A stretch of 52,390 bases of DNA from an uncultured Planctomycetales bacterium (GTDB taxonomy: Bacteria; Omnitrophota; Gorgyraeia; Gygaellales; Profunditerraquicolaceae), in NCBI GenBank assembly GCA_964354585.1, contig CAYHAI010000012.1:1-52390 (forward strand), read 5' to 3'. Under the pieces are notes generated by a model. The model made no database searches. It saw only the letters and a list, made by a program, of their open reading frames with translations, and was not told where the DNA came from. The number at the start of each line of letters is the position of its first letter. Positions within the stretch are counted from its first letter, which is position 1. Made by a program: the position numbers and the translations under genes. Of the stretch, positions 16,496 through 23,703 are shown in pieces.

Positions 16496-18331
16496 TTATT
16501 GCCTTCCCATTACTATCAGCGCCCAAGCCCTTGACCAGTGTAGCCTGCCCTGTTCAAACTTACGCCAGAGGCCATTAGCGTATCTCTTGTTTATATTACC
16601 TTTAGATAAGGCAACCTTCAAAAGTTGATTCCCTTGTTTTCTTAGCCATAAATCAAAAGGGAAAGTAAACCCTTGTTTTTTTCTATAAATAATTTCTCTA
16701 GGCAACATATCCTTAAGGGATTTTGCTAGAAGCGGCTTGGGTATATTTTTATCAATTTTTAGGCGGGAATCTACAGCGGCTATATAATCCACCAGAATAT
16801 GGTCAAGGAAAGGCACCCTGGTTTCCACAGAATGATACATACTCATAAAATCGGTATCTTTCAGGAGTTGATTCTGCAGGTACAAATTTATTTCCATATG
16901 TGAAAGCCAATCGATAGGGTTTAAAGTATTAAGTATTGAGTATTGAGTATTGAGATTAAAATCATCTATTGAATTGCTTACTTCTTTCTCGGTAATATCC
17001 AAAATTCTTGCTACATCCTTTGGAACAAAGAGCCCTCTGATAGCTAAGTAGAGCGCCAGATGGTCATCTTTTTGAAGATAATTTAACTTACGCCAGCGAT
17101 CATTAAGACCGCCGGTTAAAGCAAGCGCAGACCGCAATATTTTCGGCAGACGATTTATAGCCTTAAGCAACCGGATTTTTTTAAATGATTCGTAGCCGCA
17201 AAAAATTTCATCTCCTCCTAAACCTGACAATACTGCCTTCAGCCCTGCCTGTTTAGCCGCCCTGGAGACAAAATAGGTATTCACTCCATCAACCGTGGGT
17301 TGGTCCATCGCCGTAAAAATATTATCTATCTCGGCATAAAAATCCTTCTGTGTTACTTTTATCTGCCGATGGTCTGTGCGGTATTGCTCGGTAATCATCT
17401 TCTGGTAGGGGAGTTCAGAATATGCTTCTTCATCAAAGATAATGGAGAGCGTGGTAATCGGAATATCTCTGGCCTTACTGGCCAGGGCAACCAGAACTGA
17501 TGAGTCTATGCCTCCGCTTAAAAATACACCCAATGGCGCATCGCTAATCAAATGCAGGTCTATCGCTTCAGTCAGAATAGAACGCAAACTGCTATATATA
17601 TCTTCAGTGTCTTTTAACTTAGCTTTAGTGAAACTATCAATAGGGTCGTAGTATTTTACCAGTCTTTTTTTACCATTCTCAATTAACATATAACTGCCCA
17701 CTGATAGAGAAAAAACATTTTTTATTGTCGTCCAAGGCGCCGGGATATAACCAAAAATAAAAAAGGCAATATCCGCCTTCTGGTTACGTTCAACCGGGAT
17801 AATTCCGCTTTTTACCATAGCGCCCACCTCAGAAGAAAATATGAGCAGTTTATCATCTTGATAATAATAAAGCGGCTTTATGCCAAAGCGGTCGCGGGCA
17901 AGGATAAACCTTGGGATCGGAGATGTTAGGTCATAAATGGCAAAGGCAAACATTCCTCGCAGGCGCTTAAGCAAACCATCAATTCCCCATTCCTTATAAC
18001 CATTGACGACTACCTCTGTATCGGAATTAGAGCTAAGGCTGTAACCTTTTTCTTTTAGTTCATTTTGCAGTTGGCAATAGTTATATATTTCGCCGTTGTA
18101 TGATATCCATACTTTGCCCTCTCTATCAGACATTGGCTGGTGGGCTAAAGGGGTAAGGTCGATTATGGAAAGCCTTGTATTAACGAGGCAAAATCGTTTA
18201 TCAGAACTAAAATAAACGCCATGGTCATCCGGCCCGCGGCGCGTCAAATAATCGCGCATCTTGACTGTGCGGGTAAAATCTATCTCTTTTTCTTCTTTAA
18301 GATTATACGTTCCGGCAATTCCACACATCAT
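16496..18331 (-). CDS. asnB: Asparagine synthase (glutamine-hydrolysing)-family amidotransferase, probably amidating glycan carboxylates
   Basis: MCGIAG N-terminal nucleophile, RGPD, RLSIID, YNGEIYN, ARDRFGIKPLYY, FLSGGIDSS, LSGLGGDEIFCGY, ETRVPFLDH, KKQGF. Confidence 0.92.
   Translation of the reverse strand: MMCGIAGTYNLKEEKEIDFTRTVKMRDYLTRRGPDDHGVYFSSDKRFCLVNTRLSIIDLTPLAHQPMSDREGKVWISYNGEIYNYCQLQNELKEKGYSLSSNSDTEVVVNGYKEWGIDGLLKRLRGMFAFAIYDLTSPIPRFILARDRFGIKPLYYYQDDKLLIFSSEVGAMVKSGIIPVERNQKADIAFFIFGYIPAPWTTIKNVFSLSVGSYMLIENGKKRLVKYYDPIDSFTKAKLKDTEDIYSSLRSILTEAIDLHLISDAPLGVFLSGGIDSSVLVALASKARDIPITTLSIIFDEEAYSELPYQKMITEQYRTDHRQIKVTQKDFYAEIDNIFTAMDQPTVDGVNTYFVSRAAKQAGLKAVLSGLGGDEIFCGYESFKKIRLLKAINRLPKILRSALALTGGLNDRWRKLNYLQKDDHLALYLAIRGLFVPKDVARILDITEKEVSNSIDDFNLNTQYSILNTLNPIDWLSHMEINLYLQNQLLKDTDFMSMYHSVETRVPFLDHILVDYIAAVDSRLKIDKNIPKPLLAKSLKDMLPREIIYRKKQGFTFPFDLWLRKQGNQLLKVALSKGNINKRYANGLWRKFEQGRLHWSRAWALIVMGRQ
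16924..16954. repeat. Heptamer tandem repeat (AAGTATT x2, GAGTATT x2, GAG) inside asnB
   Basis: Read directly; encodes the low-complexity segment LNTQYSILNTL. Confidence 0.8.
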
Positions 18332-18337
18332 CGTTGG

Positions 18338-19435
18338 TTATACAAAGACATCTTTCAGGAAACCAATAAAAACCTTGCCTAAGAGAATCTGTAACTGGGG
18401 GTCTTTAATAATGATAGATATGACCTTAGAATGATTCTCAAAATCTCCAAACTTTTCTATAATACTGGCATTATTCTTAAGAACGGCGAATAATTTTTCC
18501 GTTTCCTCTTGGTTTAACCTCTCATACATTCGTTTTAATTTTAAACCGATATCAATTTCTCTCTCAAATCTCTGCTTCCATTGCCTCTCGTATTCTCCAG
18601 CGTTATTCTTTAATATACAATCAACGAGCATCTCTGCGCAGCGCATCCCGTAATATATACCACCATGGGTTAAAGGCTTTACCTGACAGGCAGCATCGCC
18701 TACTAAAAATATATTTCTATTATGGGTGAGGCATTTTCCTAAAGGCACAACTCCGGCGAATTTTTCTAAAATTTCTCCCTCAATAGACTTCTCTTCTAGA
18801 AATTCGCTTAAATCATGGTAAGGATTATCCGAAATAATCCCTATCCGGACAATACCTTCACCCTCGGGAATAATCCAGGCAAAACAGGGGCTTTTTAAAT
18901 AAACTTGAACGGAATTTTTATCACACTTATCATATCCCATTCTAAATTGCACCCCGCGCAGATACTCTATATTTCCCTTAAAACCTGTGATCTTACGCAG
19001 CGTTGAATTTGCGCCATCTGAACCGATAACAATATCTGCGTAATATTCTCCTTTGTCTGTCTCTACCAGGTAAGCCTCGCCTTCCCTTTCTATGCCGACA
19101 AATTTGGTGTTAAAATTTATCTTCAGTCCAATACCTAAGGCGCGGTCAAACTTTTCCCGGTCTATTACCACGGCCACGTCTTTTCTGTTTATTCTAAAAC
19201 TATCGTGATTTAAGAAAAACTCCGCGCCATCTATCCGATTAATGATGACGTCATCATTAATCGGAACTTTAATTTGAGTGAACACATCCATACTCACCAG
19301 ACCTGCGCAATGAACAGGCCGGCCAATCTCTGGATGTTCCTCAATGATAGTAATGTCAAAATCCCTATCTTTTTCTTTTAGTAATTGCGCGGTATAGCAA
19401 CCGATAGGTCCTGCGCCAATAATTATTATCTTCAT
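18338..19435 (-). CDS. Geranylgeranyl-reductase-family FAD-dependent oxidoreductase
   Basis: IIGAGPIG, EEHPEIGRPVHCAGL, IDREKFD, GSDGANS, FAWIIP, LVGDAACQVKPLTHGGIYYG. Confidence 0.85.
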   Translation of the reverse strand: MKIIIIGAGPIGCYTAQLLKEKDRDFDITIIEEHPEIGRPVHCAGLVSMDVFTQIKVPINDDVIINRIDGAEFFLNHDSFRINRKDVAVVIDREKFDRALGIGLKINFNTKFVGIEREGEAYLVETDKGEYYADIVIGSDGANSTLRKITGFKGNIEYLRGVQFRMGYDKCDKNSVQVYLKSPCFAWIIPEGEGIVRIGIISDNPYHDLSEFLEEKSIEGEILEKFAGVVPLGKCLTHNRNIFLVGDAACQVKPLTHGGIYYGMRCAEMLVDCILKNNAGEYERQWKQRFEREIDIGLKLKRMYERLNQEETEKLFAVLKNNASIIEKFGDFENHSKVISIIIKDPQLQILLGKVFIGFLKDVFV

Positions 19436-19454
19436 CCCGCACCTTCTATTTTAT

Positions 19455-19787
19455 TCATCCCGTACCTTTGATAAATTCATTTTTATTCTTTTCTTTGAAT
19501 ATCTCCAAAGGTGCGGGATTCAAGGCTTTTATTTGATTCAGGCTATTCTTTATTCTAAGTTTTAAGTATGCGTATGCTCTACCAAAGGATTTAAGAGATC
19601 TCTCGCGTATCTTAGCATCTTCTAATGAAATAAAAGTCTCGCAATAGACTAAATTCCAGGGTAGGTATTTCCTTGTATATTGGACTAATCCTAAGTTGTG
19701 CTCCTTTAATCTTTGTTTAATATTCTTTGTATAACCAATATAAAATACACCGTTTTTCTGACTCTTTAAAAGATAAACGTGATACAT
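19455..19787 (-). CDS. Small GIY-YIG endonuclease (SLX1/UPF0213-like)
   Basis: YHVYLL...FYIGYT...RLKEHN...YT....PW.LVYCE......A..RE..LK. Confidence 0.92.
   Translation of the reverse strand: MYHVYLLKSQKNGVFYIGYTKNIKQRLKEHNLGLVQYTRKYLPWNLVYCETFISLEDAKIRERSLKSFGRAYAYLKLRIKNSLNQIKALNPAPLEIFKEKNKNEFIKGTG
19458..19518. mobile_element. Nested 61-bp MITE-like copy with the same ends
   Basis: Ends TCCCGTACCTTTG (19458-19470) and CAAAGGTGCGGGA (19506-19518), again flanked by direct TTCA (19454-19457 and 19519-19522). Confidence 0.7.
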
Positions 19788-19812
19788 TTTGAATACAAAG
19801 AAGGTGCGGGAT

Positions 19813-20523
19813 TCATCCCCTTATCAAATCCTCTCCTCCAATAGATTTAAGAAACTCAAACACCTCTCCTACTACCACTCCGCCAGAAACTGCTTTCTGT
19901 AACGCTATAGCTTTTTGAATATGGTAAAGAAAATTTTCTACTTTACCCCGAGAGAAGAAATATCGGCTCAAGTAAAGATGGATACTTAAGTTCTGAGGAG
20001 AAAGCAAAACTGCTTTCTTAAATTCTTCTTCCGCGCTTTTAGTATCTGATAATTTATCAAATATAGCGCCCAGCCTCTGATGGTAAATGGCATTGGTGGG
20101 CTCCCTTAAAATCGCTCCTGTGAATTCTCTCTTTGCCAGCCCATAAAATTCCATCCTATCGTTTTCGAGTTTAGCATCCAGCATTTTTATATCCAAGGAA
20201 CTGCTCAGCAGCGTATCATCTCCTATCTCTGTAATAATCTGCGCATATTCAAAATAAGGCCTTGAATCATCAGTATTCAAACTGGCAGTTTCTTTTAGCA
20301 ACTTTAATGCCTGGTAATAAAAGAGCGTTTTCTCTATAATTATCTGCTTGTCTAAAGAGCGGCTTTTCTCTAAATAATCTAATGCCTTATCTAAATATCC
20401 CTGCGCGGATAAACGCGAAAATAAAACACATTCGTAAAAGATAAAGAGAAAAATAAACAAACTCATCAAAATTAAGGATTGTTTTTGGTCTAAGTCTTTC
20501 TGCCAGTTACTTAGTAACACCAT
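19813..20523 (-). CDS. Membrane-anchored TPR-repeat protein
   Basis: N-terminal hydrophobic helix, then TPR-like units (AILREPTNAIYHQRLGAIF...AEEEFKKAVLLSPQN). Overlaps the end of the ligase-like gene. Confidence 0.7.
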   Translation of the reverse strand: MVLLSNWQKDLDQKQSLILMSLFIFLFIFYECVLFSRLSAQGYLDKALDYLEKSRSLDKQIIIEKTLFYYQALKLLKETASLNTDDSRPYFEYAQIITEIGDDTLLSSSLDIKMLDAKLENDRMEFYGLAKREFTGAILREPTNAIYHQRLGAIFDKLSDTKSAEEEFKKAVLLSPQNLSIHLYLSRYFFSRGKVENFLYHIQKAIALQKAVSGGVVVGEVFEFLKSIGGEDLIRG

Positions 20524-21844
20524 CGCTAAACCTCGTATAGACCAAGCGATAAGCCAGGCCCATAATCACAAAGAATAACAGGGCATTTGCCGGTATGTGC
20601 AGATTAAAATCTAACAGCGAATATACTAACATTGCAAATATGGACGCCATTGCGCCCAATACCACAGATATAACATAAGCGTTATGCCTTTTCCGCCACA
20701 TCTTCAATACCTTCCTAAAATACAAAATAAAAAACAAAGATATACAGAGAAAACCAACTAAACCCACCTCGGATAATAACTGAAGATAGTCATTATGGGC
20801 ATAGGTAAACAAAATTTGCATGGGGCAAGTCTTATACATAGAAGAGATGCTGGCAAATGTGCCTAACCCTGTGCCAAAAAGATGAAAATCCTGCCATATT
20901 CTTAAAGTATCCCACCAGGAATAGCCATGGCCAAAAACAACCAGCGTCTCATCTTTAAATAGATTAGCAAATCTCTCTAAAACACCTTTAAAATCTATAA
21001 AAAAAATAGATAAAAAAAATACTACAGAAAAACAAACAAGCAAAGTTTTTGTCTTGGGCTTTAAACTATACTTGAAGTTTGACAATGACAACATAAATAA
21101 CAAAACCAGAATATAGACTAAAATGCCGGCCCGGGATAAAGACAAGAGTAGCGCCAAAACCATAATCCACATACAAAGGCCGTAAATAACCCTTTTAGAC
21201 CAAGGCAAATCAGTTAAAAAATATCCTAAGGCCAGGGGTATAATCATATTTATATACCCGCTAAAATTATTGCGGTTAACAAAAGGCCCGAAAGGTGTAA
21301 GTGCTGACCCGGATGCGTCAAACCAATAGACCTTACCCGAATAGGTATATTTCTGGATAATCCCAAATATGCTAATAACGACCCCAAAAAAGATAATTGT
21401 ATTTATAAGGTAGTCGAACTGTCTCTTCGTCTCTATCTTGTTAATAATTAGAAAAAATATGCCTATGTAGGTTAAAACCTTAAATAATTCTGAAAGGGTA
21501 GCATTAGGACAGATGCTTAAAGTAAAAAATGTTTTTGAGGCACCAGCGGGAATAAGATTTTTATATAAATAAGCGGTATTACCGCAAATTATTCTCATTA
21601 AATCTATAGGCAACGGGATCAATTGAAGAACAACGAGACCCAAGAATAATGCAATGGGTAAAATTAGGCCTGTTTCTAAAAAAGAGAATCTTCTTTTATA
21701 GGCCATACCTATCAACCAGAATAAAATCAGTAAAACTACTACAGTTTCTATTATTGTAATCGGCAGGGCAGTCACGCTTCCATAAAAGAGACAGCTAAAA
21801 ATGAGCAGGGGCGCAACGAGATATGGGAAGATAATGCCAGACAT
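20507..21844 (-). CDS. O-antigen ligase / Wzy_C family membrane protein (could be an O-oligosaccharyltransferase or polymerase)
   Basis: About 12 TM helices, GPFVNRNNFSGY, SLSRAG, FGTGLGTF, YAHNDYLQLLSEVGLVG, DFNLHIPAN. Confidence 0.85.
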   Translation of the reverse strand: MSGIIFPYLVAPLLIFSCLFYGSVTALPITIIETVVVLLILFWLIGMAYKRRFSFLETGLILPIALFLGLVVLQLIPLPIDLMRIICGNTAYLYKNLIPAGASKTFFTLSICPNATLSELFKVLTYIGIFFLIINKIETKRQFDYLINTIIFFGVVISIFGIIQKYTYSGKVYWFDASGSALTPFGPFVNRNNFSGYINMIIPLALGYFLTDLPWSKRVIYGLCMWIMVLALLLSLSRAGILVYILVLLFMLSLSNFKYSLKPKTKTLLVCFSVVFFLSIFFIDFKGVLERFANLFKDETLVVFGHGYSWWDTLRIWQDFHLFGTGLGTFASISSMYKTCPMQILFTYAHNDYLQLLSEVGLVGFLCISLFFILYFRKVLKMWRKRHNAYVISVVLGAMASIFAMLVYSLLDFNLHIPANALLFFVIMGLAYRLVYTRFSDGVTK

Positions 21845-21852
21845 AATAAATA

Positions 21853-23703
21853 TTAAGCCTTTTTCTCCTTCTCTTGGGCATAATAATAATGGTAATAATA
21901 GTAAGAGTCTTCTTTCTTTATGTTCACATTGTTCAGGATTACTCCGATAATCCTGGCCTTTGCCTCGTTGAGCCGCTGCCTACAGCTTAAGATAGCTTCA
22001 ATATTTCTAAAACCAGCGCGGATAACATAAACCACTCCATCCGCCATATTGGCTAAGATAGCCGCATCGGTAACTGTAAGCACTGGCGGCGCATCAATGA
22101 TAATTCTGTCAAATCTGGTTTTAAGTTCCCCCAAGAGTTGACGGCTCTTAGCAGAACTTAAAAGTTCCGCCGGATTTGGCGGCCGCGGACCAGCAGGCAT
22201 TAGAAAGAGATTAGGGACGGGGGTGTGTTTTATGACTACATCTAGAGTCGCTGCTCCGGCGAGGAAACTACTTAAACCGTCTTTATTATCTACGCCCAAT
22301 GAACTACCGATGCGGCAACGACGCATATCCGCCTCTAAGAGCAAAATCTTTTCATTGGCATGAGCAAAGATAGTGCCTAAATTTATTGCAACCGTGCTCT
22401 TGCCCTCCTGGGGCGAAGCGCTGGTAATCAGAACTGTCTTAAGAGGCTTGTCTTCCGGAGAAGAGAAGATTATGGAACTGCGGATAGAACGATAGGCTTC
22501 AGCAATCCGGGAGTTAGGCATCTTATGAGATAATAAATCAACGTCTTTCACCGTTTCGGCCTCTCGCCTTGCTGAAGGCACATAACCCAAAAAGGGTAGT
22601 CTTACATATGTCTCAATATCTTCGGCGGTCTTTACCGTAGAATCAAGGTATTCTAAGATGAAAGCCAAAACCACTCCTAAAAAGAAACCTAACATTATCC
22701 CTCTGGATACGTCCTGTTTCCTGTTTGGGCTAAACGGCCCTCCCGGCACCTGCGCTAAATCAATAATGCGGATATTGGTTGTCTCTAATTGTTTAGAGAC
22801 CTCAGTTTCCTTTATTCTTCTTAGCAATGATTCATATAGAGATTTGTCTGACTCTAGTTCTCTTTTTAAGGCGTTATACTGTATGGTCTTGGTATTAAGC
22901 TCAAGGAGTTTCCTGGTCTCATCATCAATACTTTTATTTGCTGCCTCCAATCTGGTGTTGGCATTGAGCATCTTGGGATGCTTTGATTTATAGCGCTTGG
23001 ATGACTCTATAATTTCATTTTCAATCTTTACCTTGTCCCCTTTTAAGCCCTCCAGGATAGACGCTGTTTGTTTCTCTACATCTCCCAGAGAGACAATTGC
23101 ATTCCTCTGTATATAATCGTTTAAAGTCGCCTCGGAATCCTGAAGTTTCTTTTTTAACTCTGTTAATTGTATCTGCAGCCATCCGGTTGCATATTTACTC
23201 GCTTCTGACCTTCTCTCTATATCATCCTTTATATAACTCTCTGCCAAGGCATTGGCAAACTTTGCTGCCTTAAGGGGATCGGTACTTACATAACCCACAT
23301 CTATGAGTTGCGTACCGCCCACAAGATTAACGCTCACCCCTCCTAAAAAGGCGCCCTCAGGCTCCTGCATTCCTACAAAAGCGGTATCACCTGTAGCAAT
23401 AAGGCGTTCTACCACTTTTTTGGCTAAACTCCGCGAAGTAAGAATATTGATTTGGGTCTGGATATATTCCTTATCGATCCAAGCGGAAGGGGAATAGACC
23501 TGCTGGATAGGAACCACATCTGGCATAGTTCTTTCGATAAGGACTTTGGCACTTGTCCGATAAAGAGCAATTTTCTTTAAGGTTTTCATCGTGGCATCGG
23601 TAGTGGTAATGGCAAGGCAAATAAGGATTATCCAGAATCTTCTCTTAACGACAACTAGGTAATCCTTAACCGTTATATCCCTTAATTGGGAAGAAGGTAA
23701 CAT
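21853..23703 (-). CDS. wzc: Polysaccharide co-polymerase / tyrosine autokinase (Wzc/GumC family)
   Basis: Two TM helices around a coiled-coil periplasmic domain, AEAYRSIR, TSASPQEGKST Walker A, EADMRR, IIIDAPP, C-terminal Tyr cluster YYYYHYYY. Confidence 0.92.
   Translation of the reverse strand: MLPSSQLRDITVKDYLVVVKRRFWIILICLAITTTDATMKTLKKIALYRTSAKVLIERTMPDVVPIQQVYSPSAWIDKEYIQTQINILTSRSLAKKVVERLIATGDTAFVGMQEPEGAFLGGVSVNLVGGTQLIDVGYVSTDPLKAAKFANALAESYIKDDIERRSEASKYATGWLQIQLTELKKKLQDSEATLNDYIQRNAIVSLGDVEKQTASILEGLKGDKVKIENEIIESSKRYKSKHPKMLNANTRLEAANKSIDDETRKLLELNTKTIQYNALKRELESDKSLYESLLRRIKETEVSKQLETTNIRIIDLAQVPGGPFSPNRKQDVSRGIMLGFFLGVVLAFILEYLDSTVKTAEDIETYVRLPFLGYVPSARREAETVKDVDLLSHKMPNSRIAEAYRSIRSSIIFSSPEDKPLKTVLITSASPQEGKSTVAINLGTIFAHANEKILLLEADMRRCRIGSSLGVDNKDGLSSFLAGAATLDVVIKHTPVPNLFLMPAGPRPPNPAELLSSAKSRQLLGELKTRFDRIIIDAPPVLTVTDAAILANMADGVVYVIRAGFRNIEAILSCRQRLNEAKARIIGVILNNVNIKKEDSYYYYHYYYAQEKEKKA

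Follow-up and report, generated by a model that had tools for sequence, protein, structure and literature searches.

A very small insertion-sequence-like element with a GIY-YIG nuclease as its only gene, inserted at the start codon of an operon junction in an Omnitrophota genome

SsnA of Neisseria meningitidis is a 94-residue single-domain GIY-YIG protein (Y6, Y17 and E64; Chenal et al., 2025, PMC11893778). In the available sections of that paper the enzyme binds a palindromic repeat (NTS) in single-stranded DNA (ssDNA) only and cuts one strand a few nucleotides upstream, depends on three bases 5' of the palindrome and accepts a stem made of two separate strands. Such repeats often lie on either side of the ssn gene, and the authors comment, in the same sections, on a layout like that of an insertion sequence (IS), movement not being demonstrated. 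The Ssn family is the closest described system to the element that we report here from a window of 52,390 nucleotides, the whole of contig CAYHAI010000012.1 (assembly GCA_964354585.1) of an uncultured Planctomycetales bacterium (Omnitrophota in the GTDB lineage). The element is a very small IS-like unit, about 295-330 bp when intact, and its sole gene encodes a single-domain GIY-YIG protein of about 85-100 amino acids. Beyond the IS-like remark in the available part of PMC11893778, our literature search, whose coverage excluded subscription journals and supplements, returned no description of a bacterial element with terminal inverted repeats (TIRs) and a target-site duplication that encodes only a GIY-YIG nuclease.

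Reading the minus strand of the locus gives TGAA, a 13-nt end, a 110-amino-acid GIY-YIG gene, the inverted end and TGAA again. The perfect 13-bp ends and the 4-bp direct repeat described in the initial annotation, which was made from the letters alone, are borne out by the coordinates and by a repeat search, in which the two arms, 351 nt apart, pair perfectly over 14 nt (an A/T that also belongs to TGAA makes the 14th pair). The element measures 377 nt, or 381 nt with one TGAA. Contigs of four metagenome runs (X1-X4) were mapped to the locus, parts of 18900-20400 being without contig cover. One contig from run X3, a groundwater metagenome (946 nt, depth 4.9), joins 19236-19430 directly to 19812-20400 and so skips exactly 381 nt, the element and one TGAA, with five letters fitting both sides. 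Its flanks are about 96% identical to the window (10 differences in 195 positions and 22 in 589), and with so few differences it comes from a near relative. Filled junctions were assembled in runs of other studies: record 9 of X2 spans 19419-19824, and records 2 and 5 of X1 cover both junctions. Many short contigs from all four runs match only 19431-19457 and 19787-19816 and have other insides; the unmatched contig tails begin exactly at 19430/31 and 19816/17.

The same empty arrangement is found in orthologous loci. An orthologue of the downstream oxidoreductase is present in 6 of 40 relatives, with its 5' end available in five. At four of these five junctions, all from other genera (G005, G006, G033 and G038), the TGA of a TPR-like gene overlaps the ATG of the reductase in an uninterrupted ATGAA; the fifth (G021) differs. 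The expectation that deleting the element with one TGAA would restore an ATGA overlap of the two host genes is thus realized both in the X3 contig and in these four relatives, which supply the empty alleles. The element is mobile, as had been proposed: the site is polymorphic, other copies exist and one of them is a deletion derivative.

It is scarcely credible that a nuclease gene came to lie between two short repeats by accident or through misassembly. Short inverted repeats are common, and the genome (G000; 1.82 Mb, 89% complete, the window being its contig C12) is a fragmented metagenome bin of 218 contigs. However, the 11-mer TCCCGCACCTT, with at most one mismatch, occurs five times in the window against 0.35 expected (four of the five inside the element) and none of 100 shuffles reaches five, independent assemblies from X1 and X2 contain the filled junctions and one from X3 the empty junction, and the architecture is common to dozens of homologous loci.

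We also considered TGAA as a fixed part of the ends and rejected this. The flanks vary in pairs and stand single at empty sites, and TGAA is therefore a true target duplication. Matched flanks other than TGAA are TGAG (C57, L036 and L039), TGGA (L051, L063 and L081), TGCA (L097), TAAT (L009) and TAAA (L073).

Further copies of the ends are spread through G000, where about 25 pairs are found. Thirteen belong to the CCTTCT type (73-136 bp, apart from the full copy and a nested one), about eight of a CCTTTG/CCTTTT type (59-78 bp) and three of a CCCAG type (51 bp). Twelve of the 13 CCTTCT-type copies have identical 4 nt on both sides (11 TGAA, one TGAG), and the left side reads ATGA[A/G] in 11 of the 13 and TTGAA in the nested copy. 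The search for other copies with the same ends and TGAA flanks, which had been suggested as a check, is thereby answered: the motif YCCCGCACCTTYT occurs 58 times in G000 against six for the control. The corresponding counts are 41 and 12 in G028, 10 and 4 in G021, 6 and 2 in G001, and 15 and 12 in G014, so that among the five genomes searched the end type of the window is enriched only in G000 and G028, whose nuclease copy carries it.

The short copies are gene-less derivatives (about 50-140 bp) that share their ends with the full element and resemble MITEs (miniature inverted-repeat transposable elements): they are short, non-coding, multi-copy and bounded by inverted ends and a duplication, and they have a coding parent. 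At C171:326-446 some 23 nt remain of the left end, along with some 70 nt from the gene's 3' end and the right end, and this copy is therefore an internal-deletion derivative. Two copies at different loci, C189:838 and C189:6706, are identical at 88 of 92 positions; the short form itself has thus been copied. As single strands, short copies form a terminal 14-bp stem together with an ATTCAA/TTGAAT stem (z -4.7 and -4.4; none of 200 shuffles is equal). Nested copies or remnants lie in the window copy and in C39, L006 and L039. Copies of the CCTTTG and CCCAG types are centred in a larger imperfect palindrome, CGAAYTnA on the left and TnAATTCG on the right (C116:4769, C169:3262, C180:3087, C143:57, C179:31 and C194:16871), and some full elements in relatives are placed in the same way (L011, L021, L034, L050, L110 and L114). 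The palindrome is either a longer form of the ends in that lineage or another repeat that is targeted.

In relatives, too, the nuclease gene is accompanied by inverted ends. GIY-YIG genes closely framed by such ends, with direct repeats outside them, are found in G028 (65% identity, the same ends, TGAA), in G021 (ends CCCCCACACCAACTCC, flanks TAAT, a second copy having TAAA), in G001 (ends TCCCGTTAGACCC, TGAA) and in G014 (ends CCCCGCCCTT, TGAA); those of G032 and G039 have other ends. Related loci were found with an alignment of homologues. Among 19 loci on genome contigs, from Omnitrophota, from Planctomycetota including Sedimentisphaerales and from a few bins labelled otherwise, about 16 show YCCCGCACCTT ends. 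Eight of 80 metagenome loci lie too near a contig end; of the 72 evaluable ones, 69 hold an element of 284-499 bp enclosed by inverted repeats of 10-22 nt and three have no inverted repeat of at least 9 nt. The association of the end motif with GIY-YIG genes, on which the proposal of a mobile unit had been made to depend, therefore holds in both sets. The present element is bounded by 13-14-nt inverted ends YCCCGCACCTTCT and has a second short inverted block, ATTCA. The end sequences vary by nuclease lineage (L009, L013, L020, L034 and L051), and the G021 end type is confined to that genome, around its two GIY-YIG genes. Tandem arrays in which two elements share a single TGAA are seen at seven loci (L038, L047, L089, L092, L093, L095 and L098). 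The family is a real group of minimal mobile elements, active or recently active.

Of 26 full-length genome loci examined for their insertion site, 16 were classed as TG-type (repeats TGAA, TGAG, TGGA, TGA or TAAT); the others comprise four in palindromic CGAAYT contexts, two with TTGA, two without a left repeat, one with a different inverted repeat and one in which none was found. The [A/G]TG at the right junction opens an open reading frame (ORF) of 114-640 codons in 15 of the 16 TG-type elements, the stop within the repeat terminates an upstream ORF of 92 codons or more in 12 (in L047 via its tandem neighbour), and the right repeat provides the nuclease with its TGA stop in seven. A metagenome set of 24 distinct elements with CCTTC ends, which partly overlaps the genome set, shows the same pattern. 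The left side carries [AG]TG plus two bases in 21 (ATGAA in 14, GTGAA in two, GTGGA in two, and ATGAG, ATGCA and ATGTA in one each), the flanks are equal in 19, the right side opens an ORF that is long or still open at the end of the stretch in 23, and an upstream ORF of at least 90 codons stops no more than 12 nt from the start in 13. In 8 of 11 short copies of G000 an upstream stop and the start overlap or are no more than 7 nt apart. Of 12 pairs examined in G028, eight lie at ATG[A/G]A with such tight junctions (TAAATG, TAATG, ATGA etc.) and four are of other types that are not at starts. No consensus upstream of ATGAA is visible in the aligned copies, and the nuclease gene always runs in the direction of the host gene.

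These sites were compared with the 6470 ATGAR sites of G000, 6.1% of which are start-like and 1.3% overlap-like. Start-like sites account for 8 of 11 copies (p ~3e-8) and overlap-like sites for 6 of 11 (p ~2e-9). In a selection-filtered null only the intergenic (387) and start-like (395) sites were allowed, and here the enrichment of overlaps persists (p 5e-4). The target is a 5-nt sequence, a start codon plus two bases ([A/G]TG + 2, mostly ATGAA), entered in a fixed orientation and preferentially at tight junctions. The initial annotation had the element aim at translational-coupling junctions; this stands in so far as stop/start overlaps are enriched, whereas a TGA overlap is frequent without being required and the start codon is the constant part.

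The host operon is spared by the way in which the ends are built. In the window the original start codon has been captured as A19816-G19814, the repeat's left copy is TGAA 19815-19812, and TGA 19815-19813 within it stops the upstream TPR gene; a subterminal ATTCA follows inward of the left end at 19794-19790. The left repeat thus preserves both the upstream stop and the old start, and the old start reads MNPAPS... through the left end. This captured start is in frame with the nuclease in 9 of the 16 TG-type and 13 of the 24 metagenome elements, against a chance expectation of one third or fewer; L013, L020 and L049 have no internal ATG at all, and 8 of 35 database homologues are annotated with the MNPAPS N-terminus. 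The right end encodes EGAG, and its last base (A or G) with TG makes a new ATG or GTG for the host gene, which often overlaps the nuclease's own TGA. As had been noted at the outset, the element end supplies the A of the downstream ATG (the oxidoreductase starts at 19435-19433, the last A of the element and the TG of the right repeat), and both host ORFs are uninterrupted. The GAAGGT or GAAGGTG of the right end may, on its letters, act as a Shine-Dalgarno-like ribosome-binding site. The host genes are whole, and the nuclease is one more cistron of the operon. Start-codon takeover, residence as an operon cistron and a rebuilt host start allow such a parasite to persist in genomes of 1-2 Mb that are about 91% coding. 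For annotation it matters that gene callers mis-start both the nuclease genes (MNPAPS...) and the host genes that now begin with GTG.

Pfam finds only GIY-YIG in the element, which bears out the claim that it holds one small nuclease gene and no transposase. The GIY-YIG profile (PF01541) matches residues 1-67 (E 1.2e-14), and an overlapping T5orf172 match (PF10544, E 2.6e-05) covers the same residues, with no other domain. Homologues are mostly 79-115 amino acids long. Y16, R26, H30 and E62 are invariant in 36 aligned sequences, and Y5 is conserved in at least 90%. NCBIfam, PADLOC and PHROGs give weak partial matches of GIY-YIG type only, and a protein-atlas look-up of the homologue P0019 leads to GIY-YIG clusters. 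An Rfam scan of 19200-20000 gave no match at E up to 1.

A nested 61-bp copy, overlooked in the first reading, lies within the nuclease ORF at its 3' end and rewrites the C-terminus. It has its own 14-nt ends (93% complementary) with TGAA at 19522-19519 and 19457-19454, and folds as ssDNA with z -4.7. The last 21 residues of the ORF and its stop codon come from the nested copy and the flanking TGAA, and the catalytic part (residues 1-88) is untouched. When the nested copy and one TGAA are removed in silico, the frame enters the right end, finishes with EGAG and is closed by the right repeat's TGA; an EGAG C-terminus is also found in 12 of 35 aligned homologues.

The family stands one step from the system described in 2025, and how it moves is the interesting part. 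By analogy with the Ssn nucleases, the GIY-YIG nuclease itself is probably the mover. It is favoured because it is the element's only gene, because profile searches of G000 (89% complete) gave no match for DDE_Tnp_1, rve, DDE_3 or the TnpB zinc ribbon, and because G028 (94% complete), with one full and many short copies, has no Y1_Tnp match. G032 (75% complete) likewise gave no Y1_Tnp match. On the Ssn model, the ends would pair as a stem in ssDNA with TGAA on both sides, and the nuclease would bind this stem and cut a few bases 5' of it, in or beside ATGAA. The complementary strand would present TTCA and would be no substrate; if only the ATGAA strand is cut, the fixed orientation would follow. 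A matching cut at a target ATGAR, with gap-filling and ligation by the host, would yield the 4-nt duplication, and the internal TGAA of the right end could itself be a frequent target, giving nested copies.

Several observations weigh against a nuclease that moves itself between start codons. GIY-YIG enzymes are hydrolytic, and to our knowledge no strand transfer or covalent intermediate is known for them, so that cutting alone does not suffice for insertion; the second cut, the joining and the duplication would call for host repair and ligation or for chemistry new to the GIY-YIG fold. G000 encodes four Y1_Tnp (RAYT-like) proteins, and one of their genes (C171:12023) has CGCACC...GGTGCG hairpins that share part (CGCACC) of the CCCGCACC core. 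Start enrichment is not significant under the selection-filtered null (p 0.12), and selection may therefore explain part of the site pattern; the preference for tight junctions may be partly mechanism and partly selection. Three of the 24 metagenome elements lack a start codon on the left and five have unequal flanks, as the short copy on C184 has no matching ones. The window copy is itself imperfect, its captured ATG being out of frame by one base and its C-terminus replaced by the nested copy. The published degenerate SRM motif is not enriched in G000 (four against six in the reversed genome), with none within about 1 kb of the gene; the stem-forming repeats that G000 does have differ from it in sequence and layout.

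An enzyme acting in trans, either of the Y1/HUH RAYT type or one not recognized, would leave the GIY-YIG gene a passenger or a selfish helper; as helper it might, for instance, cut empty sites so that repair restores a copy there, a role that has been proposed for TnpB in IS200/IS605. We regard this as unlikely, if the most substantial of the alternatives. It would account for the missing joining step, four Y1_Tnp genes are at hand in G000, the hairpins at C171:12023 resemble 23-nt hairpins TCCCGCACC-loop-GGTGCGGGA found elsewhere in the genome (C25, C29, C53 and C61), and short copies far outnumber full ones. Yet G028 (94% complete) has its full copy and many short ones with no Y1_Tnp match, G032 (75% complete) gave none either, and the Y1 genes of G000 bear other repeats at their own flanks (palindromes of the GGGACGTC type or CGCACC-stem hairpins). 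Moreover, the end sequences change with the lineage of the nuclease, whose last residues they encode, and the architecture is conserved across two phyla.

A second alternative gives the system a present role that is mainly the host's, with a domesticated Ssn-type nuclease and its repeats modulating ssDNA uptake, recombination or operon expression, and mobility in the past. Each genome holds a single full copy and many repeats, and in Neisseria SsnA and the NTS repeats modulate natural transformation, for which the available text of PMC11893778 proposes domestication. We nevertheless give this account a low probability. Strains about 96% alike differ in the insertion, two short copies 96% identical occupy different loci, insertions are nested and in tandem, full copies stand at unrelated loci in different genomes, and the sites are gene starts, not clustered round particular genes.

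Other GIY-YIG loci show related arrangements. A sister lineage has ends CCCCGCACCTTTT with 20-nt repeats, TTGA direct flanks and nucleases about 50% identical (L043, L046, L118, L119, L125-L127, L130, L132, L137, L139 and L142). At 10 of 13 distinct loci its right junction gives a -35-like hexamer (TTGACA, TTGAAC, TTGACT or TTGATT) with TAnnnT about 17 nt further on, and one locus has TCAA flanks, that is, the opposite orientation. From the sequence, this lineage looks to insert into sigma-70 -35 boxes, which the duplication rebuilds. Five GIY-YIG elements with inverted ends (L117, L121, L122, L124 and L153) have the common flanks GGGAAGAA and TTGACGGTAC, and lie inside the 16S rRNA gene because these flanks run into the conserved GTGCCAGCAGC.GCGGTAATACG. 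Small GIY-YIG genes without such ends also occur, three in G000 (C52:69850-70095 and two on C75) and others at L008, L010, L012, L014, L015 and L017. At 9 of 10 scanned loci they directly adjoin a tRNA gene on its 5' side (Glu, Ser, Pro, Asn, Val and Met), and several have a duplicated 5' part of the same tRNA upstream of the nuclease gene, as if the elements had entered the tRNA gene and restored it.

Taken as a whole, it is possible, and we put it forward tentatively, that a bare, Ssn-like GIY-YIG nuclease is the sole mobility enzyme of an unclassified family of transposable elements that would move through stem-ended ssDNA, with lineages specialized on expression signals that a 4-nt duplication rebuilds: start codons at operon junctions for the present element, sigma-70 -35 boxes for the TTGA lineage, and possibly tRNA and 16S rRNA genes. 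Similar insertions at gene starts in many genomes point to a mode of moving DNA that has not yet been worked out. If the nuclease does move the element, GIY-YIG joins the short list of folds that move DNA transposons, and the Ssn nucleases gain a biological role outside Neisseria, a question left open by their discoverers. The family lends itself to testing: its copies include intact and decayed ones, it has short derivatives and empty sites, and its target is 5 nt long.

The coordinates of the features are collected in the table. The element is hosted by what looks like a polysaccharide-synthesis cluster (16496-23703, minus strand), with an asparagine synthase gene and the FAD oxidoreductase gene downstream, and upstream the TPR protein gene, that of a Wzy_C O-antigen-ligase-like membrane protein and that of a 616-residue protein that by the look of its sequence resembles the chain-length-determinant/tyrosine-kinase type. 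Several genes of the cluster overlap at their ends.

Table. Features of the element and its neighbours in the window, and Y1_Tnp genes elsewhere in G000.
Feature	Position	Strand	Basis or remark
Downstream host gene, 365-aa FAD-dependent oxidoreductase, intact	18338..19435	-	ORF, Pfam and orthologues
Right copy of the 4-nt direct repeat, TGAA	19431..19434	-	Sequence reading; contig tails break here
Right terminal inverted repeat AGAAGGTGCGGGA	19435..19447	-	Ends in A19435, with which the downstream start codon begins
GIY-YIG nuclease ORF, 110 aa as it stands	19455..19787	-	ORF list and Pfam
Nested 61-bp miniature copy	19458..19518	-	Ends TCCCGCACCTTTG / CAAAGGTACGGGA, TGAA either side
Left terminal inverted repeat TCCCGCACCTTCT	19799..19811	-	Inverted-repeat search; consensus from 19 copies
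Left flank ATGAA	19812..19816	-	Single copy at empty site
Upstream host gene, 236 aa, weak TPR matches, intact	19813..20523	-	ORF, Pfam and orthologues
Y1_Tnp genes in G000	C52:62973-63311, C54:7290-7634, C32:12171-12497, C171:12023-12259		Profile search

Several known systems resemble the element in part. The free-standing GIY-YIG homing genes of phages (Seg and I-TevI type) carry C-terminal DNA-binding modules and home by recombination to one cognate site. Like the present element they are mobile units with a GIY-YIG nuclease as the only gene, often between two genes, but they have no inverted ends, duplication or miniature copies. Here the domain is bare, and insertions fill no fewer than 19 different sites in two genomes; with no DNA-binding extension and many occupied sites, the element falls outside the classical homing endonuclease genes. 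By sequence, the closest solved structures are UPF0213 proteins (BH0048 and EF2693; 1zg2, E 1.6e-8, and 1ywl, E 3.4e-7) and Slx1 (~1e-4), cellular proteins without known repeat association, of which Slx1 has in addition a RING-type domain and a partner protein.

Bacterial MITEs, the Rickettsia palindromic elements and the Correia elements of Neisseria are palindromic repeats of short length that have inverted ends and short duplications and are tolerated within genes or beside them. Unlike MITEs with a DDE parent, the short copies here have a parent that encodes no DDE enzyme, and the target is an expression signal that the duplication rebuilds. With IS200/IS605 and the REP/RAYT (REPIN) system the element shares its very small size, stem-forming ends in ssDNA, a specific 4-5-nt target, a fixed orientation and abundant gene-less derivatives. 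Those systems use an HUH Y1 transposase with a covalent intermediate, have subterminal hairpins and make no target duplication, whereas the present element has no Y1 domain inside and has inverted ends and a duplication. The element has the classical marks of an IS: TIRs, a duplicated target site and multiple copies, each at its own site. It encodes none of the known transposase classes (DDE, HUH, serine, tyrosine or Cas1).

The comparison with Ssn is closest, as far as the available sections of PMC11893778 allow it to be drawn. There each flank is a hairpin of its own of about 28 nt, whereas here the two ends pair across the gene as TIRs, and those sections report no target-site duplication, empty sites, target rule or deletion derivatives and do not mention Omnitrophota or Planctomycetota. 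In both systems, within the same limits, a single-domain GIY-YIG protein of about 90-100 amino acids is encoded between stem-forming repeats that recur genome-wide, Y6, Y17 and E64 of SsnA correspond, by position only, to Y5, Y16 and E62, the core of the stem begins with TCCCGC, and the orientation is set by the bases just 5' of the stem.

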